Shown here: in pieces, positions 12,486-62,344 of the stretch
Layout: each line of letters opens with the position of its first letter
Position numbering within the stretch: position 1 is the first letter of the stretch
Assembly: GCA_963840645.1 (NCBI GenBank)
Contig: CAWIZL010000002.1
Location: 273,663-337,662, forward strand
Direction: 5' to 3'
Source of the DNA: Candidatus Doudnabacteria bacterium
GTDB taxonomy: Bacteria; Patescibacteriota; Doudnabacteria; UBA920; VMFF01
DNA length: 64,000 bases
Made by a program: the position numbers and the translations under genes
Notes under the pieces: model-generated
Told to the model about the DNA's origin: nothing
The model's database searches: none
Seen by the model: only the letters and a program-made list of their open reading frames with translations

Positions 12486-13670
12486 ACCTGAACCTCTCGA
12501 CCAACGTGACGGCCACGGGCGAGTCGGTCACCGGCGCCGCCGTCACCCTGCCCGCGGTCACCAACACGGGGGCATCCACGTACACGTACAAGGGCCTCTC
12601 GGTCACCGGCAGCGCCATCGTCCAGAACACGGGCGCCGGCACCGACAACTGGAACGGCTTCGCCATCGCCATGCCGAACCAGACCCAGACCACCGGCACG
12701 GTCACCTCGACCGGCATCGCCATCACCGGCGGCACGGTGACGTCCGGCACGGCGTACGCGCTGACCACGTCGCTCTCGGCCGGCGCCGTCGGCTTCGGCA
12801 CCACGGCCCGGGCGCCCGCCTCGACGTCGAGTCCACGACGACCTCGGGCACCATCATCCAGGGCGCCGCCCCCTCCGCGGTCACCCTCGCCGGCACGCTC
12901 ACCGGCCTGAACCTGAACCTCTCGACCAACGTGACGGCCACGGGCGAGTCGGTCACCGGCGCCGCCGTCACCCTGCCCGCGGTCACCAACACGGGGGCAT
13001 CCACGTACACGTACAATCGCTCTCGGTCACCGGCAGCGCCATCGTCCAGAACACGGGCGCCGGCACCGACAACTGGAACGGCTTCGCCATCGCCATGCCG
13101 AACCAGACCCAGACCACCGGCACGGTCACCTCGACCGGCATCGCCATCACCGGCGGCACGGTGACGTCCGGCACGGCGTACGCGCTGACCACGTCGCTCT
13201 CGGCCGGCGCCGTCGGCTTCGGCACCACGGCCCCGGGCGCCCGCCTCGACGTCGAGTCCACGACGACCTCGGGCACCATCATCCAGGGCGCCGCCCCCTC
13301 CGCGGTCACCCTCGCCGGCACGCTCACCGGCCTGAACCTGAACCTCTCGACCAACGTGACGGCCATGGGCGAGTCGGTCACCGGCGCCGCCGTCACCCTG
13401 CCCGCGGTCACCAACACGGGGGCATCCACGTACACGTACAATGGCTTCTCGGTCACCGGCAGCGCCATCGTCCAGAACACGGGCGCCGGCACCGACAACT
13501 GGAACGGCTTCGCCATCGCCATGCCGAACCAGACCCAGACCACCGGCACGGTCACCTCGACCGGCATCGCCATCACCGGCGGCACGGTGACGTCCGGCAC
13601 GGCGTACGCGCTGACCACGTCGTCGTCTGCTGGCAACGTTGGTTTTGGAACAACCACACCACTGGCAGCC
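11968..13670 (+). repeat. Four near-identical tandem copies of a 426-bp (142-codon) unit inside the giant gene
   Basis: TCGACGTCGAGTCCACG recurs at 11971, 12396, 12821 and 13246, giving an observed period of 425. Only the third junction has ACGGCCCCGGG and stays in frame; the first two have ACGGCCCGGG. Track ORFs 12506..12910 and 12931..13164 are repeat fragments. Confidence 0.9.
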
Positions 13671-15656
13671 CTCGACGTGAACGGATCCATTGTTCAAACC
13701 TCTGCTGTCTTTGCCACAGAGACGTTGGCGACAGCTACCCAAACGGGCGGTTGCTCTGGCGTGGGCACCACGATCACGACTACGCAGGCAGTGTTCCAGG
13801 ACAACACGCACGTGCCGCTGACCTCTCAGATTTACTACAACACGACCAGCGGCAAGCTGCTCCACGCCACGATCAACGCAGTGGTAACCTGCACTGACGG
13901 CAGCTCGAACAAGTGGTACGTGCTCACGCTCGGCAATGCAGTGGCATCGCAGGCTGCCACAGACACCGCAACCCTGTACACGCCAGCGGGCAACCTCGGC
14001 AACGCAACGTCTGGCTTCACGAACAACCTGTACGCGGTAAACGGCCACTTCGTGACAGCTACAACGAGCGGCGGCTTCGACATTGCAGAACAGTACCAAA
14101 CAGCTGATGCAACCATGGGCGCTGGGGACGTGGTGAGCGTTGATCCTGCGAACGCTGACTACGTTGCAAAGTCTGGAACCGGATACGACAGCAGCACCAT
14201 TGGCGTTGTATCAACGACACCTGGTTTGACGCTCGGTGCAAACCTCGGCAGCACGTGGCAGAAAGTTGCGCTGACTGGGCGCGTGCCTGTGCTCGTGAGC
14301 GATGAGAACGGTGTACCTGAGCCTGGCGATTTCCTGACTTCATCTGCGAGCTTGCCTGGCTACGCCATGAAGGCAACGCGATCTGGGAAGGTGATTGGCG
14401 AGGTGCTTGACTCGTGGGCAGCTGGCGAGCAGCAGACGCAAAATGTGAATGGCCTGACCATTCATACTGAAAACCTGGACGTTGACCTGCACGTTGGGTG
14501 GGAAAATATTGGCAACACGTTTGTGATGGGTGAACAGGATCCTGTTGCCGCACTGGCGAGCACGCAGCAGAGCACTGGCAGTGGCGCCGCTGGCCTGGAC
14601 GCCTCACCAGACTCTGACACGTTCATCATCCGCCAGAACTTGGCGACTGGTGCGCCGCTGGCTGACATCCTGCAGCTGCAGTCTGGCAGTGTCACGCGCC
14701 TGATGGTTGCATCGTCTGGTGCGACCACCATAAACGCGAGCGTGGCTGATACGAGCGCCAACGTGTTTGCCATCAGCAACAACGGCACGAGCGACTTCAC
14801 CATAAGCGCGAGCGGCAACGTGTTTGTTGCAGGCACGCTGGTCGTGCAGCAGGACATTGCCAGCTTGGGCGAGGTGCTGGGCAGCACGGCAATCTTGGCG
14901 CAGAACGCTGACACAGCTGCGCTGCACCAGGGCGAGGTGGTAATGCTGAGCGGTGCTACGGCAACGCCGGTTGTTGGCAGTAATCCTACTATTACCGTGG
15001 TGGCTGCTGTTGCGCCTTCGGGCAGTTCTCCTGCCGAGCCCGTGGTAATTGGAGTTGTGGATCGTAACCTGTCTGAGTTCAACATTCCAGGTGCGCCAGC
15101 TGCATCTGGCTCGGACGTGACTGTGGTTGCGCCGGGCGAGTACGCTGATGTGGTGACAGCTGGCACGTACGCTGACCTCGACGTTGATGCGAGCTCTGCT
15201 GCAATCAGCGTTGGCGACCGCCTGACAATTTCCTCTCATGCCGGCTACGTCCGCAAGCTGGTGTTGCCTGCAGACGCTGGCATGCCAGTGGTGGGTGTTG
15301 CCCTCGATGCCCTGGCAAGTGGCACTGGCCACGTGCGCGTGTTGCTGACGCTCGGAGCTGGCGCAGGCTTTGGTGGCAGCGGTGCGAGCGGTAGCTCTTC
15401 GACCGGCACATCTGGCACGCAGGGTCTGGATCCATCAACGTACGGACAGGGTTTTGGCTGGGCACCTGGCCAGACTGGATCAAGCTCTCCAACGCCAGCG
15501 CCGACCGATGCGCTAGTCCCGACCACAACCCCTACACCTTCACCGACCGATGTCCCTACGCCAACGGATACACCTGCCCCAACCGTGTGCCCAACCCCAA
15601 CGCCAGCTGCAGCGCCAACGCCCGTGCCTACCGATACGCCAGCAGCAGGTCAGTAG
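13095..15656 (+). CDS. Giant surface protein, C-terminal fragment (last repeat, tailspike/peptidase-G2-like region, Pro/Thr-rich tail)
   Basis: The segment GFDIAEQYQTADATMGAGDVVSVDP..YDSSTIGVVSTTPGLTLG resembles the C-terminal autochaperone regions of tail spikes. The protein ends PTPAPTDALVPTTTPTPSPTDVPTPTDTPAPT. Confidence 0.75.
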   Translation: MPNQTQTTGTVTSTGIAITGGTVTSGTAYALTTSLSAGAVGFGTTAPGARLDVESTTTSGTIIQGAAPSAVTLAGTLTGLNLNLSTNVTAMGESVTGAAVTLPAVTNTGASTYTYNGFSVTGSAIVQNTGAGTDNWNGFAIAMPNQTQTTGTVTSTGIAITGGTVTSGTAYALTTSSSAGNVGFGTTTPLAALDVNGSIVQTSAVFATETLATATQTGGCSGVGTTITTTQAVFQDNTHVPLTSQIYYNTTSGKLLHATINAVVTCTDGSSNKWYVLTLGNAVASQAATDTATLYTPAGNLGNATSGFTNNLYAVNGHFVTATTSGGFDIAEQYQTADATMGAGDVVSVDPANADYVAKSGTGYDSSTIGVVSTTPGLTLGANLGSTWQKVALTGRVPVLVSDENGVPEPGDFLTSSASLPGYAMKATRSGKVIGEVLDSWAAGEQQTQNVNGLTIHTENLDVDLHVGWENIGNTFVMGEQDPVAALASTQQSTGSGAAGLDASPDSDTFIIRQNLATGAPLADILQLQSGSVTRLMVASSGATTINASVADTSANVFAISNNGTSDFTISASGNVFVAGTLVVQQDIASLGEVLGSTAILAQNADTAALHQGEVVMLSGATATPVVGSNPTITVVAAVAPSGSSPAEPVVIGVVDRNLSEFNIPGAPAASGSDVTVVAPGEYADVVTAGTYADLDVDASSAAISVGDRLTISSHAGYVRKLVLPADAGMPVVGVALDALASGTGHVRVLLTLGAGAGFGGSGASGSSSTGTSGTQGLDPSTYGQGFGWAPGQTGSSSPTPAPTDALVPTTTPTPSPTDVPTPTDTPAPTVCPTPTPAAAPTPVPTDTPAAGQ

Positions 15657-17169: not shown

Positions 17170-17202
17170 AAAGGGTTTCTAGATCTAGGGTCGAGCAAAA
17201 TA

Positions 17203-17228
17203 AAGAGCCACCGGTAAAGGTGGCTCTT
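17203..17228. terminator. Bidirectional hairpin between convergent genes
   Basis: AAGAGCCACC-GGTAAA-GGTGGCTCTT, a perfect 10-bp stem. Confidence 0.6.
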
Positions 17229-17252
17229 CGTTAAATTTTCTGTGCTGGCGAA

Positions 17253-17599: not shown

Positions 17600-17701
17600 G
17601 GGGGTCAGTAGTTAGTATGAATAGTTAGTAGTCGGATCCGCAAATTTCTCTTATCTATTGGTAGGCGCGATAGTAGTTTGGCTATTGAATACTCATACTA
17701 A
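17600..17701 (-). repeat. Structured intergenic element E1 (~100 nt), rpmI-rplT spacer
   Basis: A 14-bp perfect stem pairs AGTAGTTAGTATGA (17607-17620) with TCATACTAACTACT (17693-17706). The core contains GGATCCG and CTATTGGTAGGCG. Confidence 0.7.
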
Positions 17702-17896
17702 CTACTTGTAGGGGATGAGCTGTCCGAGCTTTGGGTTGGACTTCGTGAGGGTGTTGTCGCGGCGCTTGCGCGTGCCAACGTTGCCCGAGTTGCGAGAGTT
17801 GAAGTGGTCTTGGCCAGTGTGGCGAACCATTATTTTTCCAGTCCCTGTTTTCTTGAGGCGCTTTGCCGCGCCCTTGTGCGTCTTAATCTTTGGCAT
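17702..17896 (-). CDS. rpmI: 50S ribosomal protein L35
   Basis: MPKIKTHKGAAKRLKKTGTGKIMVRHTGQDHFN.. Confidence 0.95.
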   Translation of the reverse strand: MPKIKTHKGAAKRLKKTGTGKIMVRHTGQDHFNSRNSGNVGTRKRRDNTLTKSNPKLGQLIPYK

Positions 17897-18004
17897 GTCA
17901 GTAGTTAATAGGTAATAGTTAATAGATGGATCCGAACAGTTCGCTTTCTATTGGTAGGCGGCTCGTAGTTTAGCTATTGTCTACTAACTATTAACTACTG
18001 AACA
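17897..18004 (-). repeat. Structured intergenic element E2 (~105 nt), infC-rpmI spacer
   Basis: By my manual alignment roughly three quarters of positions match E1. A 13-bp stem pairs CAGTAGTTAATAG (17899-17911) with CTATTAACTACTG (17988-18000). It has the same GGATCCG and CTATTGGTAGGCG core. Confidence 0.7.
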
Positions 18005-18533
18005 CTACTTCCCATCCAATTTCGCTGTCATTTTCCCCCGCGTGAGTAAGACTGATATCGTGTTGCCCTGCTTCTTTGCAGGTGATTCAATCTCGACGCT
18101 CGGCAGTGATGCAATGAACGTCTTCATGACCTCAAAGCCTCGCTCTGCAAAAGCCTGTTCGCGTCCGCGCATCATGAGGTCAACTTTCACCTTGTCGCCG
18201 TCATCGAGGAACCTCTCAGACTGCTTGGCCTTGATGCCCATGTCGTGCTCTGAAATTCGTAGTGAGAGGCGAATGTTCTTCACCTCAATCTTCTTGACCT
18301 TTTTCTTCTGCTGCTGCTCCAGTTTCTTCTGGTGGTAGCGGAACTTGTCAAAGTTGGTGAGCTTGGTGACCGGTGGCACTGCCTGCGGTGAAACCTCAAC
18401 GAGGTCTAGCCCACGGTCCATGCGCCAGTGCGATTGCGTCGGCAATCGCCATGATGCCGAGCTGGCCTCCGTCTTCGTCAATGACGCGAACCTCTGGAAC
18501 GCGTATTTGTGCATTTACCCTTGATTTCTGCAA
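18005..18533 (-). CDS. infC: Translation initiation factor IF-3, with an indel near 18422
   Basis: The upstream frame reads ..QKSRVNAQIRVPEVRVIDEDGGQLGIMAIADAIALA and joins ..DRGLDLVEVSPQAVPPVTKLTNFDKFRYHQKK... The probable start is the TTG at 18533. Confidence 0.85.
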
Positions 18534-18819: not shown

Positions 18820-19214
18820 GGGGATGACGGATCTTGACAGTGAACAGATCCACGCAAGTACGCAAGCCGGGCACTCTCAGAACCCCGTAACATTACTGAG
18901 AAAACTCCAACTGGCAACTTTGTTGCTAAGGTGAAGAATGCGTTCGCTCCGGCGTTCGCCTTCGCACCTGCTATGGCCTAGTCACTAGGTCGTAGCGCGC
19001 GACCTCGGCGTGCCTCGCGCCTTGGCCACCGCGCTTTATATAGAGGCTCACCTTGCTGGATGTGCACGCGACAGCAGGGGACACCACAGCGCGCAGACCT
19101 GCTGGTTAGTTTGTCCGTTTGTTAGCGTGCAGGCACTCAAAGCGGACTAAGCTTGTGATCAACTCGTGTGGTGACAGTCGCTGAGACCCAGTTTAACTCT
19201 CGGCATCTCCACCA
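18820..19214 (+). ncRNA. ssrA: tmRNA (transfer-messenger RNA)
   Basis: The 5' end GGGGATGACGGATCTTGACAG pairs with the 3' end CATCTCC-A-CCA, including a G3-U pair. AACTGGCAAC parallels the Bacillus resume region. The tag ORF is GGC AAC TTT..GCT ATG GCC TAG. Confidence 0.85.
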
Positions 19215-22686: not shown

Positions 22687-22720
22687 TTAGGCGCCTGTGC
22701 GTAACGAGCACTGCCACAAA

Positions 22721-22757
22721 CTCGCAGGTACCCCTACCTGCGAGTTCTTTTTTTGAC
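22721..22757 (+). terminator. Rho-independent terminator
   Basis: CTCGCAGGTA-CCCC-TACCTGCGAG followed by TTCTTTTTTT. Confidence 0.75.
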
Positions 22758-24575: not shown

Positions 24576-25133
24576 ATGGAAAATGTTAAACTTGAGACAG
24601 CAACTTTTGCAGGTGGCTGCTTCTGGTGCACAGAGGCAATCTACACGCGGCTGCGGGGCGTTGCATCGGTTATGCCTGGGTACGCAGGTGGACGATCAGA
24701 TTTGCCAAACCCAAGCTACGAGCAGGTGAGCACTGGCAACACGGGCTACGCCGAGGCTGCGCGCGTTGAGTTTGATCCAGCCGTAATTTCGTACGAAACG
24801 CTGCTGGATGTTTTCTGGGCAACCATTGACCCAACAACTTTGAACCGGCAGGGGAGCGACGTTGGCACACAGTACCGCTCAGCTATTTTTTACCACAGCA
24901 ATGCACAGCGTGAAGCCGCAGAGAAATCTAAAGCAACTTTGGCTGCGAGTGGCAAGTACACCAACCCAATTGTCACCGAGGTCGTGCCGTTCACCAACTT
25001 CTACGAGGCCGATGAATCTCATCGAGAATTCTACGATCGTAATAGAGAATACGGCTACTGCAGGCTGGTAATTGATCCAAAGATCCAGAAGCTGTACAAG
25101 GGGTTTTCAGATAAGCTTAAAGAAGAGGTTTAA
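24576..25133 (+). CDS. msrA: Peptide-methionine (S)-S-oxide reductase
   Basis: ATFAGGCFWCTEAIY..GYAGG..NPSYEQV..GYAEAARVEFDP. Confidence 0.95.
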   Translation: MENVKLETATFAGGCFWCTEAIYTRLRGVASVMPGYAGGRSDLPNPSYEQVSTGNTGYAEAARVEFDPAVISYETLLDVFWATIDPTTLNRQGSDVGTQYRSAIFYHSNAQREAAEKSKATLAASGKYTNPIVTEVVPFTNFYEADESHREFYDRNREYGYCRLVIDPKIQKLYKGFSDKLKEEV

Positions 25134-25224
25134 ACAAAAAAGAACGTTCCAGGAGCTTCGAGTTTCATTTCTTTCGCGGGGCGAAAGCCAAGAAACGAGC
25201 GCGAGGGGAGTGTTCTTTTTTTGT
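25134..25224. repeat. Long palindromic intergenic element, copy A (bidirectional terminator-like)
   Basis: Outer arms AAAAAAGAACGTTCC and GGAGTGTTCTTTTTT. Inner core CTTCGAGTTTCATTTCTTTCGCGGGGCGAAAGCCAAGAAACGAG. Confidence 0.6.
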
Positions 25225-25233
25225 TTGAGCTGG

Positions 25234-26205
25234 CTACTTTAAGGTATTGATCGGAGAACCGTTTATGAATGCTGCAATTTCATCAGTGGCCGTCTTTATA
25301 ATGGCATCTTTTGCCTCAACGCTGAAAAACGCAATGTGTGGCGTGATGTAAACGTTCGGGTGGGCAATGAGCGCCTTGACTGCTGCTGCCTCTGGCGATG
25401 CCGGGTTGTTCTCGAACGCAGTCTCACCCTCAACCACGTCCAGGCCTACAGCGCGCAGCTGGCCACTGTCGAGCCCTGCAATGAGCGCTGCTGTCTCTAC
25501 AATTTCGCCGCGCGCTGTGTTCACGAGCAGAGCGCCGTGCTTGAGCTTTGAAATATTTTCCGTGTTGATGAGGTGGTGCGTGCTCGGCATGTACGGCACG
25601 TGCACGGTGATCACGTCAGACTGGGCAAGCAGCTCATCGAGCGTGACGTACTTGAAGCCGAGCGCTGTTGCCTGTGCCTCATTTGGGAACGCATCGTTTG
25701 CAATGACGTTCACCTCAAAGCTGCGGGCGAGCTGGGCAACGTTCAGGCCAATCTTGCCAGTGCCGAGGATGCCCAGTGTCTTGCCCTTGAGGTCAAAACC
25801 TTCAAAGCCGGCAATGCTGAAGCTGCCTGTTTCTTGAACCTGCTCAGCACCTTTGATGGTGTTGCGGCACAGGTCTAGGATGAGGCTGAACGCAAACTCT
25901 GCCACAGCTCGTGCGTCGTACGCAGGCACGTTGCACACGGCAATGCCCTTTGAAATTGCGTGGGCAACGTCAACGTGGTCAAAGCCAGCTGAACGCGTGA
26001 TGAGCAGCTTTGTCTTTGGGAGCTGGTCGAGGATTGGCGCGCTCAGGTCTGAGTGGATGAAAGTTGATACAATCTCTGCGTCTGCTGCCGTGGCAACATT
26101 GGCAGCTGTCAGGCGGTCAGCTGTGTACGTTGCCTCAACTGAGGTGAGGAGGGGCGTTAACTTTTTAATGTCTTCTTCATCACACTCGTAGAATGCTGCT
26201 TTCAT
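25234..26205 (-). CDS. D-isomer-specific 2-hydroxyacid dehydrogenase (D-lactate dehydrogenase-like)
   Basis: GKTLGILGTGKIGLNVAQLARSF (NAD-binding fold)..LLVNTARGEIV..ITPHIAF. Confidence 0.9.
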   Translation of the reverse strand: MKAAFYECDEEDIKKLTPLLTSVEATYTADRLTAANVATAADAEIVSTFIHSDLSAPILDQLPKTKLLITRSAGFDHVDVAHAISKGIAVCNVPAYDARAVAEFAFSLILDLCRNTIKGAEQVQETGSFSIAGFEGFDLKGKTLGILGTGKIGLNVAQLARSFEVNVIANDAFPNEAQATALGFKYVTLDELLAQSDVITVHVPYMPSTHHLINTENISKLKHGALLVNTARGEIVETAALIAGLDSGQLRAVGLDVVEGETAFENNPASPEAAAVKALIAHPNVYITPHIAFFSVEAKDAIIKTATDEIAAFINGSPINTLK

Positions 26206-27395: not shown

Positions 27396-27434
27396 CCCCG
27401 TGCGCAGCGCTGCTGTCGCACGGGGTGATTTTTT
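27396..27434 (+). terminator. Rho-independent terminator
   Basis: CCCCGTGCG..CGCACGGGG followed by TGATTTTTTAT. Confidence 0.7.
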
Positions 27435-27870
27435 ATCCTACAACTTTTCTTATTCTCCGCTCAACGTCACGCTTCTTTATAGACTCACGCTTATCGTACT
27501 TTTTCTTGCCGCGGCCAATGCCAATGCGGAGCTTCACGAGCCCGTGGCCAGCTGTAAAAATGTTCAACGGAATGATTGTCGTGCCGCGCTCTGCGCCGAT
27601 GAGCGACATGATCTCGTTTTTTTTGAGCAGCAGTTTCCTGTCTCTGTCTGGGTTGTAGCCAACTTCTTGCGCAGCGTACTTGTACGGCGTGACGTGCGCC
27701 TTCACGAGCCACGCTTCGCCGCCGCGGATGCTGACGTACGCACCTGTGAGTGAACCTTGGCCAGCTTTCAGTGATTTAACCTCGCCACCAGTCAATGCTA
27801 AACCAGCGACCATTTCATCTGAAATGGCGAAGTCGTGGACTGCTTTTCTGTTGCTGACGAGCGTTGGCAT
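27433..27870 (-). CDS. smpB: SsrA-binding protein
   Basis: NRKAVHDFAI..GGEVKSLK..YNPDRDRKLLLKKNEI..GIGRGKKKYDKRESIKKRD. Confidence 0.95.
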   Translation of the reverse strand: MPTLVSNRKAVHDFAISDEMVAGLALTGGEVKSLKAGQGSLTGAYVSIRGGEAWLVKAHVTPYKYAAQEVGYNPDRDRKLLLKKNEIMSLIGAERGTTIIPLNIFTAGHGLVKLRIGIGRGKKKYDKRESIKKRDVERRIRKVVG

Positions 27871-30072: not shown

Positions 30073-30157
30073 GTGCTTGCGGGGCGTCAGCCCTATTCGG
30101 CAATCAGCTGATACAAGCACACAAAAGTAACCACAAAAGTGGTTCTTTTTGTTTTTT
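30073..30157 (+). ncRNA. Candidate small RNA (promoter, stem-loop, terminator)
   Basis: TTGACA (30038-30043), a 17-nt spacer, then TATCGT (30061-30066). This is followed by an 8-bp stem TGTGCTTG..CAAGCACA, then AACCAC-AAAA-GTGGTT plus CTTTTTGTTTTTT. Confidence 0.3.
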
Positions 30158-34775: not shown

Positions 34776-35207
34776 ATGGAACAAACGGAAAGCGCGCAGT
34801 TTTTCGGTACAGAAATCCAAGCCAGTGGTTTCGACAGGGCAGAGATCAGCCTGCCCCTCGGTGAGTTTCCACTGGCAGATCCAAAAGCCCTGATCACAGA
34901 GTTTAGCGTGCACGGGCTCAGTTCGCTACTCATAGCGGCGACTGCTGAGCCTTTCTACTCTGGCAAGAAACTCGTACCGCCAATTCCCGCCCTGCGGTAC
35001 GTGCGCGAAAGGTACCCTCTCAGCGGGGGACGGCGCGAGTTCACCGTGGTCTCGGTTTTCCCCGTGAGGGGTGTTCTCTGGGTCATGGCTCAGAGCGAGC
35101 GTGAAAGCGTGAGGTCTATAAAGGTAGATGAAGTTCGAAGACTGTGCGCTGCTACAGGCATCAGTTCAGACACGAGCACCTGCACGTTGCTGCTCTTCGT
35201 GGATTAA
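34776..35207 (+). CDS. Hypothetical protein (143 aa)
   Basis: GGAGG lies 4 nt upstream of the ATG, and a terminator follows. Confidence 0.5.
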   Translation: MEQTESAQFFGTEIQASGFDRAEISLPLGEFPLADPKALITEFSVHGLSSLLIAATAEPFYSGKKLVPPIPALRYVRERYPLSGGRREFTVVSVFPVRGVLWVMAQSERESVRSIKVDEVRRLCAATGISSDTSTCTLLLFVD

Positions 35208-35236
35208 GACCCAGCACCTCCGCGTTTGTCACTCTC

Positions 35237-35269
35237 GCCCCGCAAAAAGTTGCGGGGCTTTCTTTTTTT
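35237..35269 (+). terminator. Rho-independent terminator
   Basis: GCCCCGCAA-AAAG-TTGCGGGGC followed by TTTCTTTTTTT. Confidence 0.8.
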
Positions 35270-35302
35270 GTCATTTCCCCGAAAAACGCGTACAATAGGC
35301 TC

Positions 35303-37120
35303 ATGCAAGACTACTCAGTTCCAGTGAGGGTGGTACAACCTAACATGCCCCAGCGCCAAAATAGCGGCAACGCTTTCAGAGATTTTTACGAGAAGAACAA
35401 GATTGCCGTGTGGGCAATTGTTGTGTCGCTCGCGGTCATTGGGGCCATCCTCTTGGTCATTTTCCACAGGCCAGGTGCTGTGGTGCCGCCAAAGGTTACG
35501 CTGCAGATCAGCGCACCTGCACAAATCTCAACGGCAACAGCTACCGTGTACCAGCTCACGGTCACAAATTCTGACACGTCGCCCATCAGCAACGTCTCAA
35601 TAGACGTGCTGTACCCATCTGGCTTCACGTTCCAGTCGAGCTCGCCACCGGCCTCAAGCTCAGACGGCACCACGTTCAACAACATCACGCAGCTCGGCCC
35701 AGGACAGAACGCCGTCATTGCAATCAAGGGCAGCACAGCTGGCAACAATGGCCAGGTGCAGCAGATCAACGCGGTCATGCACTACCAGTTCGCAAGTGCA
35801 TCCACAGATTTTGTGGCGCAGGCTTCCTCGCAATCGACCATCAGCAACTCTGGCATTGCGCTGCAGGTTTCTGGACAGGAGCAGGTGAACAACGGGCAGG
35901 TGACCACGTACACGTTTGGCTACACCAACACAACTGCGAACGCCGTTAGCGACATGGCCATGACCGTGAACTTGCCAGCTGGCTTTACGCCAACATCGTA
36001 CGTTCCAAATCCAGCTGCTCCGCTCGGCCAGGGCAACAGCACTCTTACCTGGAACCTGCCGAGCCTGCCGGCGAACGGCACTGGCTCTGTGCAAATCGTA
36101 GGTGCATTTGCGGGTCTCAGCACTGGTACCCAGGGAAATTTTGCCGTTCAGATTGATGGCACAGTGGCTGGTGCTACGCCAACCCCAACAGTGGGTTCCT
36201 CTGTGAACACTGCTCCTGCTGTGCTCGCATCGACAACGTACCAGGTTACCGTTGTGGTGAACCCAATTTCTGCGACGCTCACCCTCCAAGCTCCGACGAG
36301 CGTTGACCCAGGCACGCAGCTCTCGTACCAGCTTGCGTACCAGAACAGTGGACAGACCGCGGCAACCGGCATCAACATCACCGTCACGCTCGTTGGCGAT
36401 GCGTACGACCTCACCACGCTCTCTGCGCCAATGTCGAGCATCACGGGCAACACAATTACGTGGAACGGCTCCCAGGTTCAGCAGCTGGCAGACCTTGGCC
36501 CAAACCAGCAGGGGACCCTCAGCTTTACCATTGGCGTGAAGAACCCTGCCACGAGAGGCGACGTAGAGAACATGACAGTTACAGCTACACCTTCGATTGA
36601 GAGCGACCAGTTCCAGCAGCCGTTCAGTGGCACCCCAATTTCTACAAAAGTAAATACGCAGCTCGTGCTCGATGAGACTGCAGCGGTGAGCAGTGGCCCA
36701 AACCCTCCGACAGTTGGCCAGCAGACAACGTACACTGTCGTGCTCGGCCTGCGGAACACCACGAACGATGTGAACGGCGTGGTGGTCACCGCGAGCCTGC
36801 CAGAGGCGTACAACTTTGACCCAACGCTCGTCACGTTCGTAGAGCAGAAGAACGTGACGTACGATCCCGGTACGCGCATGCTTACCTGGAACGTGGGAAC
36901 AGTGCCCGCGCAGACCGGCGACTTCAACCCCGTGCGCAGCCTTACGCTCACGGTGGTGGTCTTGCCAGACCAGTCAAACATTGGCCAGCAAATGTCGCTC
37001 CTCACGAACGTTGCCGTGACCGGCACAGACGCCTTTACCGGAAACCAAATTTCACTCACCGGCAGCAAGCTCACAACGTCTGCTGACCCAGGTGGCAATG
37101 GAACCGTGGTAGCGCAATAA
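35303..37120 (+). CDS. Membrane-anchored surface protein with about 5 DUF11/CARDB-like Ig-fold repeats
   Basis: Start trimmed to the ATG at 35303 (MQDYSVPV..). TM helix IAVWAIVVSLAVIGAILLVIF. Repeated ~100-aa modules such as YQLTVTNSDTSPISNVSIDVLYPSGFTF and YTFGYTNTTANAVSDMAMTVNLPAGFTP. Confidence 0.65.
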   Translation: MQDYSVPVRVVQPNMPQRQNSGNAFRDFYEKNKIAVWAIVVSLAVIGAILLVIFHRPGAVVPPKVTLQISAPAQISTATATVYQLTVTNSDTSPISNVSIDVLYPSGFTFQSSSPPASSSDGTTFNNITQLGPGQNAVIAIKGSTAGNNGQVQQINAVMHYQFASASTDFVAQASSQSTISNSGIALQVSGQEQVNNGQVTTYTFGYTNTTANAVSDMAMTVNLPAGFTPTSYVPNPAAPLGQGNSTLTWNLPSLPANGTGSVQIVGAFAGLSTGTQGNFAVQIDGTVAGATPTPTVGSSVNTAPAVLASTTYQVTVVVNPISATLTLQAPTSVDPGTQLSYQLAYQNSGQTAATGINITVTLVGDAYDLTTLSAPMSSITGNTITWNGSQVQQLADLGPNQQGTLSFTIGVKNPATRGDVENMTVTATPSIESDQFQQPFSGTPISTKVNTQLVLDETAAVSSGPNPPTVGQQTTYTVVLGLRNTTNDVNGVVVTASLPEAYNFDPTLVTFVEQKNVTYDPGTRMLTWNVGTVPAQTGDFNPVRSLTLTVVVLPDQSNIGQQMSLLTNVAVTGTDAFTGNQISLTGSKLTTSADPGGNGTVVAQ

Positions 37121-37179: not shown

Positions 37180-37277
37180 GAGACAAAAAGAAGAAGCCCT
37201 AGCTCAGCTGAATGCTGTCTTTTCTTTCAGAAAAGAAACGGATTCAGAAATCGCTGCGGGCTTCTTCTTTTTGTCTC
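37180..37277. repeat. Long palindromic intergenic element, copy B (bidirectional terminator-like)
   Basis: Perfect 20-bp arms GAGACAAAAAGAAGAAGCCC and GGGCTTCTTCTTTTTGTCTC. The inner core is the reverse complement of the copy A/C core (..CCGTTTCTTTTCTGAAAGAAAAGACAG..). Confidence 0.65.
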
Positions 37278-37285
37278 TGGATAGC

Positions 37286-38590
37286 TTAGTAAATGAACCC
37301 TCTGATGACCGGTGATGCAATGCCGATCGTCCTGGTGTCAGTAATGCCCAAGCCCTTGTAGTTCATTTCAGTGACCGTGAACGAGTCTTTGCTGACGCTG
37401 TCCACGACGGCAACGTGGCCGTAGCGGCTCTCGTCAGTTACCACAATGGCTCCAGGAATTGGCGTGCGGCCTTCTTTTGCGCCGAGCGCTGCTGCGTTCG
37501 CCAGCCAGTTTCGCGCGTTGCCGCCCCACGTCACGTGCCGCACCTCAGCCACGTAGTACGTGCACTGTCCCCACGGGAACTCGTGCTCAGAGCCCGGCAA
37601 GTCTTGAATGCCTGGAGGTGCAGGCTCGTAGTACACCTTGCCGCCAACGGTCAGCTTCACCTTTGCAGGCGCTGGCTTTGCCGCGGGCTTTGGCGCTGGC
37701 ACTGTGCCACCTGGAATAATCAAAATGTCACCTGGGTTGATGTCGCTCTCGTCCGCGAGGTTGTTGTAAGAAATAATCTGGTTGACGTCAGCGCTGAAGT
37801 AGCTGGCAATGTCTGGCAGCGTGTCGTTGGCTGTCACCTTGTGCAGGACGCCGCTCGTCGGCAGGATGAGCAGGTCCCAGCCAGGCTGAATGGTGTTGCT
37901 CGGCAGGTTGTTCGCCCACACAATGGTGTCTGGGGTGATGCCGTACTTCTGCGCAATGCTGTCGAGCGTATCACCCGGCTGCGTGACGTACACTTTAATC
38001 TGCTCGAGCACGAGCGTGCGTGCGCTGCTCGTGTCAACTTTCGTGATGCTGTTGCCGTCAGACACAGCTGCACCAGACTGGTTGTCAGGGTCTGAGCTAT
38101 CGTCACCTGTGCCTCCGCTGCTGTCGCCTTCCACAGAGTCTGCCGTGATGACAGTGTCTGCATCAGCGGTCTGGATGAACACGTTGCCGTTAGACTGAGC
38201 CACGACGGTCTTCACGGTGGTAGCTGCTGCGTACAAATTTTCGTTCTGGCCAGGGTGGAACGACAGCTCTTTTGCGAACAGGTTGCTGCTGTTGAAGGCT
38301 GCCAGAACCTGCGTGCCGGTGAAGTTAATGCCAATTACAATGAAAGACAGCACCAGAACAACGAGCTCGGTGCTGAACTTGAACGTGTAGTCAATGTGAT
38401 CCATCTCCACTGAAGAGTGGTGGGCGTGGAACGTGCTGAAGTGCTTCGCAATGCGTGCGACAGTGGCTCTGAAATTGGCTGCAAGCTTTACTGCAGTTTC
38501 TCGCAGCTTATGCAGCTGCTGCGTAATGTACGCTAGGGGAGGTTGAATGCAAACTCCTGTAACACCGCGTAACCGAACGTTTCTTCGCAT
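37286..38590 (-). CDS. Peptidoglycan hydrolase: TM, 2 x LysM, CHAP amidase/peptidase domain
   Basis: LysM: YVTQPGDTLDSIAQKYGITPDTIVWANNL and HKVTANDTLPDIASYF..IISYNNL. CHAP: FPWGQCTYYVAEV..YGHVAVVDSV. Confidence 0.85.
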   Translation of the reverse strand: MRRNVRLRGVTGVCIQPPLAYITQQLHKLRETAVKLAANFRATVARIAKHFSTFHAHHSSVEMDHIDYTFKFSTELVVLVLSFIVIGINFTGTQVLAAFNSSNLFAKELSFHPGQNENLYAAATTVKTVVAQSNGNVFIQTADADTVITADSVEGDSSGGTGDDSSDPDNQSGAAVSDGNSITKVDTSSARTLVLEQIKVYVTQPGDTLDSIAQKYGITPDTIVWANNLPSNTIQPGWDLLILPTSGVLHKVTANDTLPDIASYFSADVNQIISYNNLADESDINPGDILIIPGGTVPAPKPAAKPAPAKVKLTVGGKVYYEPAPPGIQDLPGSEHEFPWGQCTYYVAEVRHVTWGGNARNWLANAAALGAKEGRTPIPGAIVVTDESRYGHVAVVDSVSKDSFTVTEMNYKGLGITDTRTIGIASPVIRGFIY

Positions 38591-38802: not shown

Positions 38803-40930
38803 ATGGCTGAAACACAAAAAATAATTCCCCAATCGCTGCTCACAGGCTTAAACAGCAAGCAGGCTGAGGCTGTCACAGCCCCGCTCGGCCCGCTCCTCGT
38901 TTTGGCTGGTGCTGGCTCTGGAAAAACAAAGGTGCTCACCAGCCGCATTGCGTACCTCATTGCAACAGGCCGGTTTGCCAGCGGCAACATTTTGGCACTC
39001 ACGTTCACCAACAAGGCAGCTAAAGAAATGCTCACCCGTGTGCAGGCGCTCATTGGCGCCAGCGCGGGCAAGTCTGCTGGCATGCCAACCATGGGCACGT
39101 TCCACTCTGTGTGTGCGCGCATTCTGCGCCAAGAAATTTCAGCGCTCGGCTACGGCGCGAGCTTTGCCATCTACGACGACGATGACCAGTCTAAAATTTT
39201 GAAAGAAATTTGCAGCCAGGTTGGCGTGCCGGCACGGTTTTCCCCGAACGTGTTCCGCAGCTACATTTCAACGGCTAAGAACTTGCTCCAGACACCCGAT
39301 GAGCTGAGCCTGGGCATTGATCCAGTGCTCCTCGGCTTCACCCGTTCTATATACACCGCGTACCAGAGCTACCTGTTCAAGCAGAACGCGCTCGATTTTG
39401 ACGACCTGCTCATGCTCACGGCCCGCCTGCTGCAGCACTTTCCAAATGTTTTGCACAAGTACCGCGAGCTCTTCAAGTACATTTTGGTAGACGAGTACCA
39501 GGACACGAACCACGCGCAGTTCGTGCTGCTCTACCTTTTGGCAAACCACGGCGAGCGCAACATTTTTGTTGTCGGCGACGACGCGCAGGCAATCTACGGT
39601 TTCCGCGGCTCAAACTTGAAAAACATTTTAGACTTTGAGGTGAACTTTCCTGACGCCGTTGTCATCAAGCTGGAGCAGAACTACAGGTCAACTAAAAATA
39701 TTCTAGACGTTGCGCAAGAGGTGATTGACCTGAACCCAGAGCAGAAAAAGAAAAAGCTCTGGACAGAGAACGTGGCCGGTGAAAAAATTCAGCTCGTCGA
39801 GGTCGCGGATGAGGGTGAGGAGGCGCGGTACGTTGCGCGGTGCATTGTGAAGGCTGCGTCCCCAGACACTGGCGTGACGTACGAGCCTGACGAACAAGCA
39901 GAAGAACAGCCTGAGGTTGCTCACACGTTTTCAATTCTCGACCAGTTTTTAAAAAAGCAGCAGAGAGGCAACCGCCGCGGACAATTCAGCGGCGGCTTTG
40001 GCGTGCCGGTCTTGCCAGCAGACCACGCCAGCCTCAAAGGGTTTGCGGTGCTGTACCGCACGCACGCACAGTCGCGCGCCATTGAAGAAGTTTTTTTACA
40101 GGCCAGATCCCGTACCAAATTACTGGCGGCGTGAAGTTCTACCAGCGCCGTGAAATTAAAGACGTGCTCGCGTACCTGCGGCTCGTGGTGAACCCTCGCG
40201 ATTTGGTGTCGCTGCAGCGCGTCATCAACGAGCCGCCACGTGGCATTGGCGAGAAGTCTCTCGAGCCAATCAAAGGTTTCTTGCTCGAGCACGACACAGC
40301 CGCAGCGGACTTTGCCAAGATCCATGCAGCGAAGCTCGGCCTCGGCGCGCGCCAGCTCGCAGGCGCCAAGACGTTCTTTGGCCTGCTCGCAGATTTTGCC
40401 AGCCTCAGCCCCGCTGAGAGCCTCACGTCTCTCATCCGCCTGGTCATCAAGAAGTCTGGGTACGAGCAGCACCTCCGCGATGGCAGCACAGAGGGCGAGG
40501 CACGGTTCGAGAACGTCCAGGAAATTTTCAACGTCGCGGAAAAGTACGATAGCCTGCCGTGGCCACAAGGCCTAGGTGAGTTCCTGCAGGAGGTTGCCCT
40601 CATGACAGACGCAGACACCAGCCGCGGCGAGAAAGACTGCGTCACCATGATGTCTCTGCACCAGGCAAAGGCCTTGAGTTTGACACGGTGTTTCTGGTTG
40701 GCCTCGAAGAGGGGATTCTGCCGCACTCTCGCTCGCTCCTCAACCCTGAAGAGCTGTCTGAAGAGGTTCGCCTCGTGTACGTTGGCATCACGCGAGCGCG
40801 GAAGTCGCTGACGCTCCTGTACGCGCAGTCCCGCAGGATGTACGGGACTGTCCAGAGCTTTGCGCCATCGAGGTTCCTGCGCGCGCTGCCAGAAGAAAAA
40901 ATTAACAAAAAGTTAATCAGCCGGTATTAA
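38803..40930 (+). CDS. pcrA: UvrD/PcrA-type ATP-dependent DNA helicase, with 1-nt indels near 40105 and 40670
   Basis: [40 protein letters not shown]. The three track ORFs join as ..EEVFLQA / [19 protein letters not shown] and ..SLHQAKG / [18 protein letters not shown]. Confidence 0.9.
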
Positions 40931-50530: not shown

Positions 50531-52378
50531 ATGCCAACCACAGTACCGCCAACAGCTGAAGAGCTGGCTGGAGCAGCGACAAAGCACGATGACCAGGCAA
50601 CCACAAAGAAGGTCATTGAGGTCGAGGAAGAGTACCGCCGCGGCATTGTCTCGCTGCGCGACATTCTGGCGCCATCTGCGCTCAAGTTCGATGCGTCGTA
50701 CTTTACCCTCAACGGCAAGGTTGGCCGAACGTTCTTCGTGCTCGCGTACCCGCGCTTCCTTTCGGCTGACTGGCTCTCAGAGGTCATCACGCTCGAGACC
50801 CCGCTCGACATGTCAATGTTCATCTACCCAATTGACTCAGCTGATATTTTAAAGAAGCTGCGCTCAAAGGTTGGGCAGATCGGCTCGCAGATTGCCATAG
50901 ACCAAGAAAAGGGCAACGTGCGCGATCCAGTTCTGGAAACTGGGTACAAGGACGTTGAGTTCTTGCGCGACGCGCTGCAGCAGGGCACAGAGCGCTTCTT
51001 CCGGTTTGCCCTCTACTTCACCCTGTACTGCGATGACGTTGCGCAGCTCGACAAGTACTCGAGCATCTTAGAGTCAACATTGTCGGCTCGCCTCGTGGTG
51101 ACCAAGCGCGCCATTCTGCAGACGCAGGCTGGCCTGAACTCCACGTTGCCCGTTTCTTCAAACGAGCTCGACATCTCAACGAACATGAACACGTCGCCGC
51201 TCTCGACAACGTTCCCGTTCGTGTCTGCAGAGCTATCTGCGAACGAGGGCATCCTGTACGGCATCAACCGCCACAACAACTCGCTCATCATCTTCGACAG
51301 GTTCAAGATGGAGAACGCAAACTCTGTGACGTTCGCAAAGTCTGGCGCTGGCAAGTCGTACTCCGTGAAGCTGGAGGTTCTGCGCAGCATGATGATTGGC
51401 ACTGACGTGATCATCATTGACCCTGAGAACGAGTACCAGCACCTGGCAGACGCGGTAGCCGGCGCGTACCTGAACGTGTCTTTAAATTCCGAGTCGCGCG
51501 TGAACCCGTTCGACCTGCCGCTCCCAATCGAGGGCGACGACAACGCGGACATCTTAAGGAGCGCCATCATCAACGTGCTCGGCCTCATGAACCTCATGGT
51601 GGGCAAGATGAACGCCACAGAAGAGGCCATCATGGACAAGGCCCTGTGGCAGACGTACGCAAAGAAAGACATTACAGAGACGAGCGACTTCCGCAGCATT
51701 GTTGCGCCGACCATGGGCGACCTGGTGGAAATTCTCAGCGGCATGGTTGGCGGTGAATCGCTCGCCCAGCGCCTCACCAAGTACACTGACGGCACGTTCG
51801 CGGGCATCTTCAACCAGCAGTCAAACATTGTGCTCAACAACCAGCTCGTGGTGTTCTCGATTCGCGACCTGGAAGATTCGCTGCGGCCAATTGCCATGTA
51901 CGTAATCTTGAACTACGTGTGGAGCATTGTGCGCTCTACTTTGAAGCGGCGTATCCTGGTGCTCGACGAGGCGTGGATCATGATGCAGTTTGAAGACTCA
52001 GCGCGCTTCCTGTTCGGCATTGCAAAGCGCGCGCGCAAGTACTACCTGGGCGTGTCCACCATTACGCAGGACGTGAACGATTTCATGAGCAGCCCGTACG
52101 GCAAGCCTATTGTCACGAACTCTTCTATACAGCTCTTGCTCAAGCAGTCGCCAGCTGCAATTGACATCATCTCGCAGACGTTCTTCTTGACCGAAGGCGA
52201 GAAGTACCTGCTGCTCGAGAGCGACGTTGGCGAAGGAATTTTCTTTGCGGGCCTCAAGCACGCGGCCATTAAAATTTACGCGTCGTACGTTGAGGGCCAG
52301 ATTATTACCACAGACCCGAAGCAGCTTTTGGAGCTGCAGCAAGCGAAGGCGAGCGCGAGCGTAGAGGGCAGTAGTTAG
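50531..52378 (+). CDS. VirB4/TrbE/PrgJ-like type IV secretion ATPase
   Basis: VTFAKSGAGKSYSVK (Walker A), RILVLDEAWIMM (Walker B), RKYYLGVSTITQD. N-domain: GKVGRTFFVLAYPRFLSADWLSEV. Confidence 0.88.
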   Translation: MPTTVPPTAEELAGAATKHDDQATTKKVIEVEEEYRRGIVSLRDILAPSALKFDASYFTLNGKVGRTFFVLAYPRFLSADWLSEVITLETPLDMSMFIYPIDSADILKKLRSKVGQIGSQIAIDQEKGNVRDPVLETGYKDVEFLRDALQQGTERFFRFALYFTLYCDDVAQLDKYSSILESTLSARLVVTKRAILQTQAGLNSTLPVSSNELDISTNMNTSPLSTTFPFVSAELSANEGILYGINRHNNSLIIFDRFKMENANSVTFAKSGAGKSYSVKLEVLRSMMIGTDVIIIDPENEYQHLADAVAGAYLNVSLNSESRVNPFDLPLPIEGDDNADILRSAIINVLGLMNLMVGKMNATEEAIMDKALWQTYAKKDITETSDFRSIVAPTMGDLVEILSGMVGGESLAQRLTKYTDGTFAGIFNQQSNIVLNNQLVVFSIRDLEDSLRPIAMYVILNYVWSIVRSTLKRRILVLDEAWIMMQFEDSARFLFGIAKRARKYYLGVSTITQDVNDFMSSPYGKPIVTNSSIQLLLKQSPAAIDIISQTFFLTEGEKYLLLESDVGEGIFFAGLKHAAIKIYASYVEGQIITTDPKQLLELQQAKASASVEGSS

Positions 52379-61389: not shown

Positions 61390-62145
61390 ATGGAGCCAAT
61401 GATTTTTCTGCTGACGCTCGTGTTCGTGGTGCTGCTCTTTGCCGTGTGCGGCAGGAAGGGGTTTCGCTCTTTTCTTTCTCTGGCAGTTACCGTGCTGGCA
61501 CTGGTGTGGGTGGTGACGCCGCTCATTGTGCACGGCTACAACCCTGTCGTGGTAACGCTCGTGTTGGCGCTGCCAATTCTGCTGCTCATCGTGTACCTCA
61601 CGGAAGGGTTCACCACTGTGTCGCACGTGTCTGTGGTTGCCGTAGCCCTGAACTTTTTGCTCACGAGCACCCTCACGTACTTTGCCGTTTCAGCCAGCCA
61701 CCTCACCGGAATTATTTCTGACGATGCCAGCTTCTTGGGGTTGACTGGAATAAACCTGCAGCAGCTGCTCATTGCGGGCATTATGCTGGGCACGCTCGGC
61801 ATTCTCACTGAAATGGTTGTCACGCAGGTTGCTACAGTGGCCGAGTTTGTGGAGGCATCGCCAAACGCGAGCCGCGCGCAAATTTATCGCCAGTCGTACA
61901 ACGTGGGCATTGCACACTTGGGGTCTATTATAAACACGCTGTTCTTGGTGTACGCTGGCGTATCGTTTCCGCTGCTCATCATTTACGCTGGCAGCAGCGC
62001 ATCGCTCTACAGCGCACTGAACTACGAGCCGCTCGCCAGCGAGGTCATCCGCACGCTCTGCGGCACCATTGGATTGATTGTTGCCATGCCAACCTCAACG
62101 TTGCTGGCCACGTGGTGGATTAAAAGGGAAAAGTCCGATTTTTAA
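61390..62145 (+). CDS. YibE/F-family membrane protein
   Basis: Polytopic; ..GIMLGTLGILTEMVVTQVATVAEF..YNVGIAHLGSIINTLFLVYAG.. Confidence 0.7.
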   Translation: MEPMIFLLTLVFVVLLFAVCGRKGFRSFLSLAVTVLALVWVVTPLIVHGYNPVVVTLVLALPILLLIVYLTEGFTTVSHVSVVAVALNFLLTSTLTYFAVSASHLTGIISDDASFLGLTGINLQQLLIAGIMLGTLGILTEMVVTQVATVAEFVEASPNASRAQIYRQSYNVGIAHLGSIINTLFLVYAGVSFPLLIIYAGSSASLYSALNYEPLASEVIRTLCGTIGLIVAMPTSTLLATWWIKREKSDF

Positions 62146-62171
62146 AAACACCAGCAGTGTTTTTTAGGAAA

Positions 62172-62258
62172 GCCGAGAGAACTTTTTAGGATCTTCGAAT
62201 TCCGTTTCTTTTGCGGAGCAAAAGACAGGAATGGGCGATCATAAAAAGTTCTCTCGGC
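62172..62258. repeat. Long palindromic intergenic element, copy C
   Basis: Perfect 17-bp arms GCCGAGAGAACTTTTTA and TAAAAAGTTCTCTCGGC. Core CTTCGAATTCCGTTTCTTTTGCGGAGCAAAAGACAGGAAT. Confidence 0.65.
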
Positions 62259-62267
62259 TCTTACTCT

Positions 62268-62344
62268 TGGTGACCTCGACAGGGTTCGAACCTGTGACCT
62301 TCAGCTCCGCAAGCTGACGCTCTATCCAGCTGAGCTACGAGGCC
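62268..62344 (-). tRNA. tRNA-Arg (anticodon GCG), CCA encoded
   Basis: GGCCTCG-TA-GCTC..GAGC-G-TCAGC-TTGCGGA-GCTGA-AGGTC-ACAGG-TTCGAAC-CCTGT-CGAGGTC-A-CCA. Confidence 0.9.

Follow-up and report, generated by a model that had tools for sequence, protein, structure and literature searches.

Patescibacteria, also called the Candidate Phyla Radiation, have not been cultivated, and to our knowledge hardly anything has been learned about the ends of their transcription units; a literature search pairing Patescibacteria with intrinsic terminators returned no paper. In the 64-kb stretch of DNA analysed here, referred to as the window, three long palindromes are located between genes that are transcribed towards each other. 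This raises the question whether these palindromes, called copies A, B and C in the following, belong to one family, and what such a family does at the ends of genes. The best named IleRS homologues of the host come from Ca. Doudnabacteria and from the 'Patescibacteria group', with 60-63% identity.

Three related palindromes occupy convergent junctions of the window

Copies A, B and C are nested hairpins of ~95 nt with a common core, and each is found in a convergent junction of its own (Table 1), consistent with the original prediction that had placed them at convergent gene ends. Copy A extends from the stop codon of msrA to a point 8 nt short of the stop codon of the converging dehydrogenase gene. 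Copy B follows the LysM-CHAP stop codon at a distance of 8 nt and the DUF11 gene at a distance of 59 nt. Copy C starts 25 nt past the YibE/F stop codon, and 8 nt separate it from the tRNA-Arg(GCG) 3' end. Based on a greedy ORF map, the three elements fill 3 of the ~7 convergent junctions of the window that have a spacer of at least 50 nt, and none of its ~60 co-directional or divergent gaps.

Table 1. Positions of the elements, their parts and neighbouring genes in the window, and of the copies in other assemblies (contig name before the colon).
Feature	Position	Strand	Remarks
msrA	24576..25133	+	PMSR, E 4e-61; upstream of copy A in sense direction
Copy A, whole element	25132..25226	+	covariance model 93.7 bits, E 1.4e-21
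Copy A, conserved core	25153..25206	+	GGAGCTTCGAGTTTCATTTCTTTCGCGGGGCGAAAGCCAAGAAACGAGCGCGAGG; 94% identity to the L057 core
2-Hydroxyacid dehydrogenase gene	25234..26205	-	convergent on copy A
Ordinary short bidirectional terminator	30117..30157	.	ACAAAAGtAACCAC-AAAA-GTGGTTCTTTTTGT; convergent junction
DUF11 surface-protein gene	35144..37120	+	convergent on copy B
Copy B, whole element	37180..37277	-	model 87.8 bits on - vs 31.8 on +
Copy B, left arm	37180..37199	.	GAGACAAAAAGAAGAAGCCC; pairs perfectly with 37258-37277
Copy B, inner module	37200..37257	-	apical hairpin TCTTTTCT-GAA-AGAAAAGA
Copy B, right arm	37258..37277	.	GGGCTTCTTCTTTTTGTCTC; inverted repeat
LysM-CHAP cell-wall hydrolase gene	37286..38590	-	upstream of copy B in sense direction
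YibE/F membrane-protein gene	61390..62145	+	upstream of copy C in sense direction
Copy C, whole element	62171..62259	+	covariance model 108 bits
Copy C, conserved core	62189..62241	+	88% identity to the L059 core
tRNA-Arg(GCG)	62268..62344	-	convergent on copy C
L057 copy	L057:189-281		67.5 bits, E 8e-15; convergent junction
L059 copy	L059:149-237		80.5 bits, E 3e-18; between prmC and rplY, convergent
L066 copy	L066:10665-10759		59.3 bits, E 6.5e-13; prmC/rplY junction, as in L059

The anatomy of the three copies is similar but the quality of their arms differs. In copy A an A-tract/GAAC arm is followed by the core and then by a GTTC/T-tract arm. The arms of copy B pair perfectly over 20 nt, as had been predicted, and its stem and T-tract read identically from either strand. 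Arms of 15-17 bp had been proposed for both A and C; this is appropriate for copy C, with 17-18 perfect outer pairs, but not for copy A, where the arms comprise ~14-15 nt interrupted by a one-base bulge and including G.U pairs. Copy C as a whole is a 40-nt inverted repeat with 78% complementarity (62171-62210 / 62220-62259); its outermost arm is G+C-rich (AGCCGAGAG/CTCTCGGCT) and has no flanking T-tract.

The three core strings quoted in the original prediction were found where it had located them. The claim that copy B matches A and C when reverse-complemented also holds: the core of B aligns to those of A and C on the minus strand, which is its sense orientation, and a covariance model trained on A, B and C (model R1) scores this strand far above the other. 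With this model and filters turned off, no fourth copy was detected in the 64-kb window. Folded as RNA, both strands of copies B and C reach -48 to -55 kcal/mol, and their z values relative to dinucleotide shuffles are -7 to -9. Copy A folds well on the plus strand only (-40.9 kcal/mol vs -29.9 kcal/mol on the minus strand, z about -3).

Further members are found in related genomes

To search metagenome contigs we used a 34-position degenerate pattern fitting A, B and C. Five contigs matched, and two of these, L057 and L059, harbour full-length members according to the covariance model. The L057 copy is non-syntenic relative to the window and is flanked by the end of an unassigned gene and by a small Lys-rich ORF that is followed by a class I tRNA-synthetase gene. 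A further copy, in L066, was located with no DNA pattern at all, but through protein homology to the L25 protein (rplY) of L059 and synteny; the relative in question is 90% identical. Thus, all six known copies sit between convergent genes. Their density amounts to 3 per 64 kb in the window and to 1 per 20.6 kb in L066. Taken together, these data agree with the prediction of a dispersed structured repeat with a conserved core, as three more copies are present in relatives at other convergent junctions and covariation across the six copies supports the nesting described below.

Since the arms are made of low-complexity A and T runs, we considered that the likeness between the copies could be a chance similarity of low-complexity T/A-G terminator sequence, or that the palindromes could be artefacts of assembly. 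Short versions of the core do arise by chance: a scan of representative genomes with the 18-base core CGTTTCTTTT-N7-AAAAGACA yielded 47 single matches scattered over unrelated taxa, none of them in a genome with two copies, and these matches are presumed to be accidental. However, the core pattern TTTCTTTY-N7-RAAAG, allowing at most one mismatch, occurs 8 times in the window where 0.37 occurrences are expected, and 6 of the 8 lie inside A, B and C. This confirms that the core similarity exceeds chance, as had been claimed, and so do the E values of the further copies (1e-12 to 1e-18). The longer 34-position pattern had only the 5 metagenome matches of which 2 are full copies. In four independent assemblies, full-length matches to the model, with E values of 1e-12 to 1e-25, show one and the same architecture of three tiers. 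The window organism is also represented by two independent Logan contigs, which preserve the intergenic lengths at A (100 nt) and at C (229 nt). As one member was reached by gene synteny alone and the spacers of the Logan contigs match, the elements are neither chance products nor assembly artefacts, and this explanation is effectively refuted.

Six of the 47 matches to the 18-base core are contributed by Ca. Binatia genomes (L009, L019, L037, L039, L051 and L053), which suggests that a sequence conserved in Binatia contains the pattern by coincidence. Another Logan contig, L067, encodes an identical L25 protein and terminates at L067:7241-7286 exactly in the apex of an element downstream of rplY. 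Long palindromes break de Bruijn assemblies, and the family is therefore expected to be under-represented in collections of short-read contigs.

The family has a narrow distribution. No copy is present in a GROS21 scaffold of ~59 kb from a relative at 71-76% protein identity, nor in 31 kb of a relative at 65% L25 identity. Rfam gave no match at gathering level for any of the elements; the best matches below threshold are generic miRNA-precursor-like hairpins with 14-24 bits, compared to thresholds of 57-249, and neither a terminator motif nor another specific family was matched. The repeat family has not been described before and was found in a narrow Patescibacteria clade allied to Ca. Doudnabacteria. 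A small protein-coding gene as the content of the elements was ruled out, as no start codon is common to the copies and in-frame stops interrupt B and are found a short distance upstream in L066.

The elements are predicted to fold into three tiers

We then analysed the common structure in an alignment of the six members (alignment A4: A, B, C, L057, L059 and L066). Standard base pairs are formed in 90.2% of the pair cells, compared to 51-59% after displacing the partners by 1-3 columns. Double, compensatory changes are found in 23 of the 31 predicted pairs, and none of 500 shuffles reached the observed covariation score.

The structure comprises three tiers. The first, at the base, combines a tract rich in A with a stem containing G/C, typically AAAAAGAAGAAC / GTTCTTCTTTTT. 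The second is a short hypervariable stem in which pairing is always kept. The third is a conserved module of ~55 nt at the tip. According to the predicted folds, the module contains a first helix (GCUU/GAGC) with a CGA bulge, a second helix of 5 bp (GUUUC/GAAAC), an asymmetric internal loop with GUU opposite CA or CCAA, and an apical helix of 8 bp (UCUUUYGC/GCRAAAGA) that is capped by a G-N-A triloop. The centre of the element is most highly conserved, and the termini are least specific. The outer arms had originally been described as differing in sequence apart from an AAAAAG(A/T) theme. They are not unrelated, as the arms AAAAAGAAGAAC...GTTCTTCTTTTT are common to 4-5 of the 6 members, and homology thus spans most of the ~95 nt.

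The orientation of the elements is clear, with covariance model scores of 78-104 bits for the sense and 23-50 bits for the antisense strand. Owing to their G.U pairs, A and L057 fold ~10 kcal/mol better in sense. B, C, L059 and L066 fold nearly equally well on both strands, with z values for L059 and L066 in the same range as for B and C (-7 to -9). Counting over the alignment, 9 G.U pairs in sense face 4 A.C pairs, or about 6 and 1 if the poorly fitted copy B is left out. These counts, although suggestive, are too small to distinguish between selection at the RNA and at the DNA level.

Covariation, defined orientation and the better sense folding of A and L057 would all be expected of a structured RNA with a function of its own in the 3' UTR of the upstream gene. 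Its apical module would be the place where an RNA-binding protein or RNase docks or where processing occurs, or the element would be a 3'-derived small RNA, with the basal stem merely acting as a clamp. The conserved unpaired elements, i.e. the CGA bulge, the GUU/CA loop and the GNA triloop, are moreover typical of protein or tertiary contacts. Nevertheless, we consider this explanation improbable. The genes flanking the copies have no common function (msrA, the hydrolase, YibE/F, prmC and one gene without assignment), making a gene-specific cis-regulator unlikely. In addition, four of the six members fold almost as well on the opposite strand, plain hairpins take the place of the element in relatives (see below), and the elements match no Rfam family, the generic long-hairpin scores being far below gathering.

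The near-equal folding of both strands, and the perfect or near-perfect DNA palindromes formed by the arms of B, C, L059 and L066, could alternatively reflect a signal at the DNA level. By analogy, this might be a cruciform, a palindrome bound by a protein, or an inverted pair resembling the uptake signals found in terminators of Neisseria and Haemophilus; Patescibacteria depend on DNA uptake. Such a role appears very improbable. With 3 copies per 64 kb the elements are far rarer than uptake sequences, the conserved unit extends over 55 nt and not 10-12 nt, and the G.U-dependent stems of A and L057 are mismatched on the other strand.

The base of the elements resembles a bidirectional terminator

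An intrinsic terminator consists of a stable, G/C-containing RNA stem followed by a U-rich tract of ~7-9 nt. In 5 of the 6 copies the basal tier comprises an A-tract, a stem and a T-tract as in bidirectional intrinsic terminators, with T runs of 5-7 in the 3' arm on both strands. The exception is copy C, which has no proper U-tract on either strand. The bidirectional-terminator role that had been proposed is thus consistent with the A/T-tract bases of five copies and with the ordinary hairpins of relatives, but fits copy C poorly. With its position 8 nt from a tRNA 3' end and no U-tract, copy C may mainly be a 3'-end structure and less a canonical terminator. The data lend no support to the proposal that the elements had been 'co-opted' for termination, which presupposes an earlier origin as something other than a terminator.

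The elements exceed the dimensions of compact terminators, with ~31 pairs in three tiers over ~95 nt. A scan with a simple terminator consensus called neither B nor C, and in A only a small sub-hairpin. The window also contains ordinary short terminators. The one at 30117-30157 has an A-tract/T-tract base in the style of the elements, yet without the inner module; others are located at 17202-17229, 22719-22746 and 35237-35258.

Plain hairpins and elements alternate at orthologous junctions

A comparison of orthologous junctions provides information on both the function and the spread of the elements. In the GROS21 relative (75% IleRS identity), the DUF11/LysM-CHAP junction orthologous to that of copy B harbours a plain 17-bp hairpin with a 4-nt loop. 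At the rplY/prmC junction of another relative, L068, the hairpin is a plain one of 15 bp with A and T tracts on its flanks. Both junctions are thus equipped with ordinary short hairpins in relatives whose proteins are about 75% or about 90% identical. This exchange of elements and ordinary terminators at the same sites is the best available evidence that both do the same job.

Core identity among the copies varies from 48 to 94%, and its pattern does not follow the relatedness of the sites. The cores of A and L057 and of C and L059, in both cases from unrelated loci, are 94% and 88% identical, with arm identities of 47% and 62%, respectively. In contrast, the positional orthologs L059 and L066 share only 62% of their core without gaps (74% with gaps) and 62% of their arms. 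As cores from unrelated loci are more similar than those from orthologous sites, we infer that the module may have been copied or converted between sites. Purely vertical descent under uniform constraint, as judged from these sequences, would not predict this pattern of core identity.

A simple route for such a spread, the insertion of the module into the loop of a pre-existing terminator, found no direct support: no empty site with the same arms was found and the hairpins of the relatives are wholly different. The homology between copies also reaches into the GAAC/GTTC part of the arms. We further dropped the idea that the interior of L066 is inverted with respect to L059, as the forward (50/68) and reverse (46/68) alignments score too similarly to be told apart.

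In two relatives (L001:10990-12349 and L007) a glycerate kinase gene (DUF4147/MOFRL) is located between the 2-hydroxyacid dehydrogenase gene and msrA. The gene is absent from the corresponding junction of the window (25134-25233), where copy A is found instead, indicating that copy A marks a site of gene loss or rearrangement.

Presence and absence at orthologous junctions of close relatives, near-identical cores at unrelated loci with differing arms, and the restriction to a narrow clade (with the two copy-free relatives mentioned above) are also the features of a non-autonomous mobile element of the REP/REPIN, PATE or MITE-like type. In that case the module would be the binding hairpin of an enzyme acting in trans, such as a Y1/RAYT-type transposase or a recombinase, the elements would accumulate at convergent gene ends because insertions are harmless there, and terminator activity would be incidental. 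The bulge and the asymmetric internal loop indeed resemble the irregular hairpins recognised by IS200/IS605 and REP-RAYT enzymes. Several observations weaken this explanation, which we regard as possible but on the unlikely side. None of the six copies is flanked by a target-site duplication in direct repeat; their flanks extend the palindrome instead. Among the ~56 ORFs of the window, Pfam searches revealed no transposase, integrase or RAYT domain, and no IS was seen in the window or in the loci near the copies. The copies are diverged rather than forming a burst of near-identical sequences, and their conservation is highest at the centre, whereas that of MITEs is highest at the termini. Two core patterns gave 0 and 3 matches in viral contigs, the three being chance hits none of which fits the model, and a blastn search of plasmid and phage collections with copy A returned no match. 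The label 'REP/MITE-like' of the original prediction is not supported by these data: in addition to the missing target-site duplications and the lack of a transposase or RAYT among the ~56 ORFs of the window, the elements, which have a G+C content of 36-45%, have no GTAG-type head.

Discussion

We have identified a family of ~95-nt nested hairpins that is specific for one lineage. From their anatomy and position we conclude that these elements are probably bidirectional intrinsic terminators at the convergent gene ends of a narrow clade of Patescibacteria. In the proposed mechanism, an RNA polymerase arriving from either side would transcribe the hairpin and be released at the U-run, as the basal tier would provide the transcript of either strand with a stem followed by a U-run. 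The long and stable hairpin could in addition shield the 3' ends of both mRNAs from exonucleases. The module might be maintained either because a host factor binds to it or because it is itself the unit that is copied between terminators. New copies would then arise when the module is copied or gene-converted from one site to another, and not by classical cut-and-paste transposition. Some aspects speak against this terminator interpretation. The ~55-nt module is not needed for termination, so that its conservation is left unexplained, and the hairpins, of which six copies are known, are far longer than canonical terminators.

Canonical terminator hairpins have stems of 5-14 bp and loops of 3-8 nt and share no sequence between loci. 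The elements resemble canonical bidirectional intrinsic terminators in the A-tract, stem and T-tract at convergent gene ends, which 5 of the 6 copies have, but differ in that their 'loop' of 55-60 nt is itself a structured and conserved module.

Hairpin MITEs of bacteria (Correia/CREE, ERIC/IRU, RUP, BOX and the Rickettsia RPE) are imperfect palindromes of ~100 nt in intergenic regions; they are transcribed together with neighbouring genes and can influence termination as well as the stability of RNA. MITEs are characterised by conserved terminal inverted repeats and by target-site duplications, and their copies are similar along the whole length. The family described here shares the size of ~100 nt, the imperfect palindromes and the dispersal in intergenic DNA, whereas its ends AAAAAGAAGAAC/GTTCTTCTTTTT are of low complexity, duplications are missing and conservation peaks in the centre.

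REPs are G+C-rich imperfect palindromes of 20-40 nt with a conserved, GTAG-like 5' tetranucleotide; they are present in hundreds of copies, are associated with RAYTs and leave no target duplications. The REP/BIME/REPIN elements of Enterobacteria and Pseudomonas are, like this family, extragenic palindromes frequently located at 3' ends and between convergent genes. The family differs from REPs in being one long nested hairpin whose base is A/T-rich and whose centre is conserved, and neither a GTAG head nor, among the ~56 ORFs of the window, a RAYT is found. Its distribution is like that of REPs and MITEs, but these features do not support an assignment to either. For E. coli, REP elements are outlined in a bioRxiv manuscript as 3'-UTR terminators and mRNA stabilisers whose locations vary between strains (bioRxiv 10.64898/2026.03.23.713779).

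A close parallel is TRIT, the tuberculosis Rho-independent terminator motif of Mycobacterium, described by Gardner et al. (2011, PMC3152330) with 147 copies per genome around position -8 from the stop codon. TRIT, too, is a lineage-restricted hairpin that is strongly conserved in sequence and structure and scattered over gene termini; its palindromic nature makes it mostly bidirectional, it makes up many of the most stable structures at gene ends, and an extra factor binding the conserved stem was likewise proposed by its authors (PMC3152330). Judged from these descriptions the two families are distinct. Their sequences are unrelated, TRIT has been reported in Mycobacterium only while the host here is a Patescibacterium, and the elements of our family are located just after stop codons, measure ~95 nt in three tiers and mostly have U-tracts. 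The closest analogues in role are thus the mycobacterial TRIT and the E. coli REP; the family is unrelated to both in sequence, occurs in another phylum, is longer and has its conservation centred on the tip.

The conserved tip allows for a more speculative extension of the terminator interpretation, which we put forward with considerable reservation. The ~55-nt module could be a portable 'terminator cassette' whose signature of bulge and internal loop is bound by a lineage-specific protein. This protein would either render termination or 3'-end processing dependent on a factor in these bacteria with reduced genomes, or copy the module from one hairpin to another. Copying of the cassette, if true, would account for cores at unrelated loci that are 88-94% identical although their stems differ, and for the greater divergence of orthologous sites. 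It would represent a hairpin-loop-targeted spread free of duplications, which would be new for bacterial repeats.

Beyond the question of mechanism, a conserved and easily modelled terminator family would provide a sequence handle for annotating transcript ends in Patescibacteria. It would be the second case, after the mycobacterial TRIT, of sequence-conserved terminators that hint at an accessory factor, and it would offer a compact system to study the spread of structured repeats that lack the hallmarks of a transposase. With six diverse members and strong covariation, the family is a ready candidate for a new Rfam entry. If the element is merely a variant of a terminator it is useful for annotation and unsurprising; it would be truly surprising only if the module were factor-dependent or self-copying.

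Other features of the window

Several further features of the window were noted. Two further long hairpins are found close to infC (IF3, 18005-18514). These two homologous structures of ~105 nt (17600-17710 and 17897-18006), with arms such as AGTAGTTAGTATGAATAGTTAGTAG / CTATTGAATACTCATACTAACTACT, are each located on the minus strand directly upstream of a small gene following infC. The small genes are probably rpmI (L35) and rplT (L20), and the paired hairpins look like leader or autoregulatory structures of ribosomal-protein genes; neither has an Rfam match at the gathering threshold. Both components of trans-translation are present ~8 kb apart, the tmRNA at 18820-19214 (Rfam, 67.8 bits) and SmpB at 27433-27870; ARAGORN reported no tmRNA.

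A UvrD-type helicase at 38803-40811 is split into two ORFs of 443 aa and 226 aa with a 4-nt overlap, while the syntenic gene in the relative L060 is one ORF of 733 aa; the split could be due to a frameshift, a pseudogene or a sequencing error. At 1185-2730 a C-terminal AAA_2 fragment similar to ClpB/ClpC (340 aa, TTG start) is preceded by a separate ORF of 162 aa, and this chaperone gene may be split or mis-started.

In the region 6177-15656, two very large ORFs, of 2102 aa and 853 aa, lack a Pfam domain; they are situated in a G+C-rich island (0.57-0.69 vs about 0.53 elsewhere) with a strongly negative GC skew. Finally, ~12 co-directional genes between 41738 and 53170 have no Pfam matches with the exception of a TraG/VirB4-like P-loop ATPase at 50531-52378, and this run may represent a type IV secretion or pilus-like cluster.
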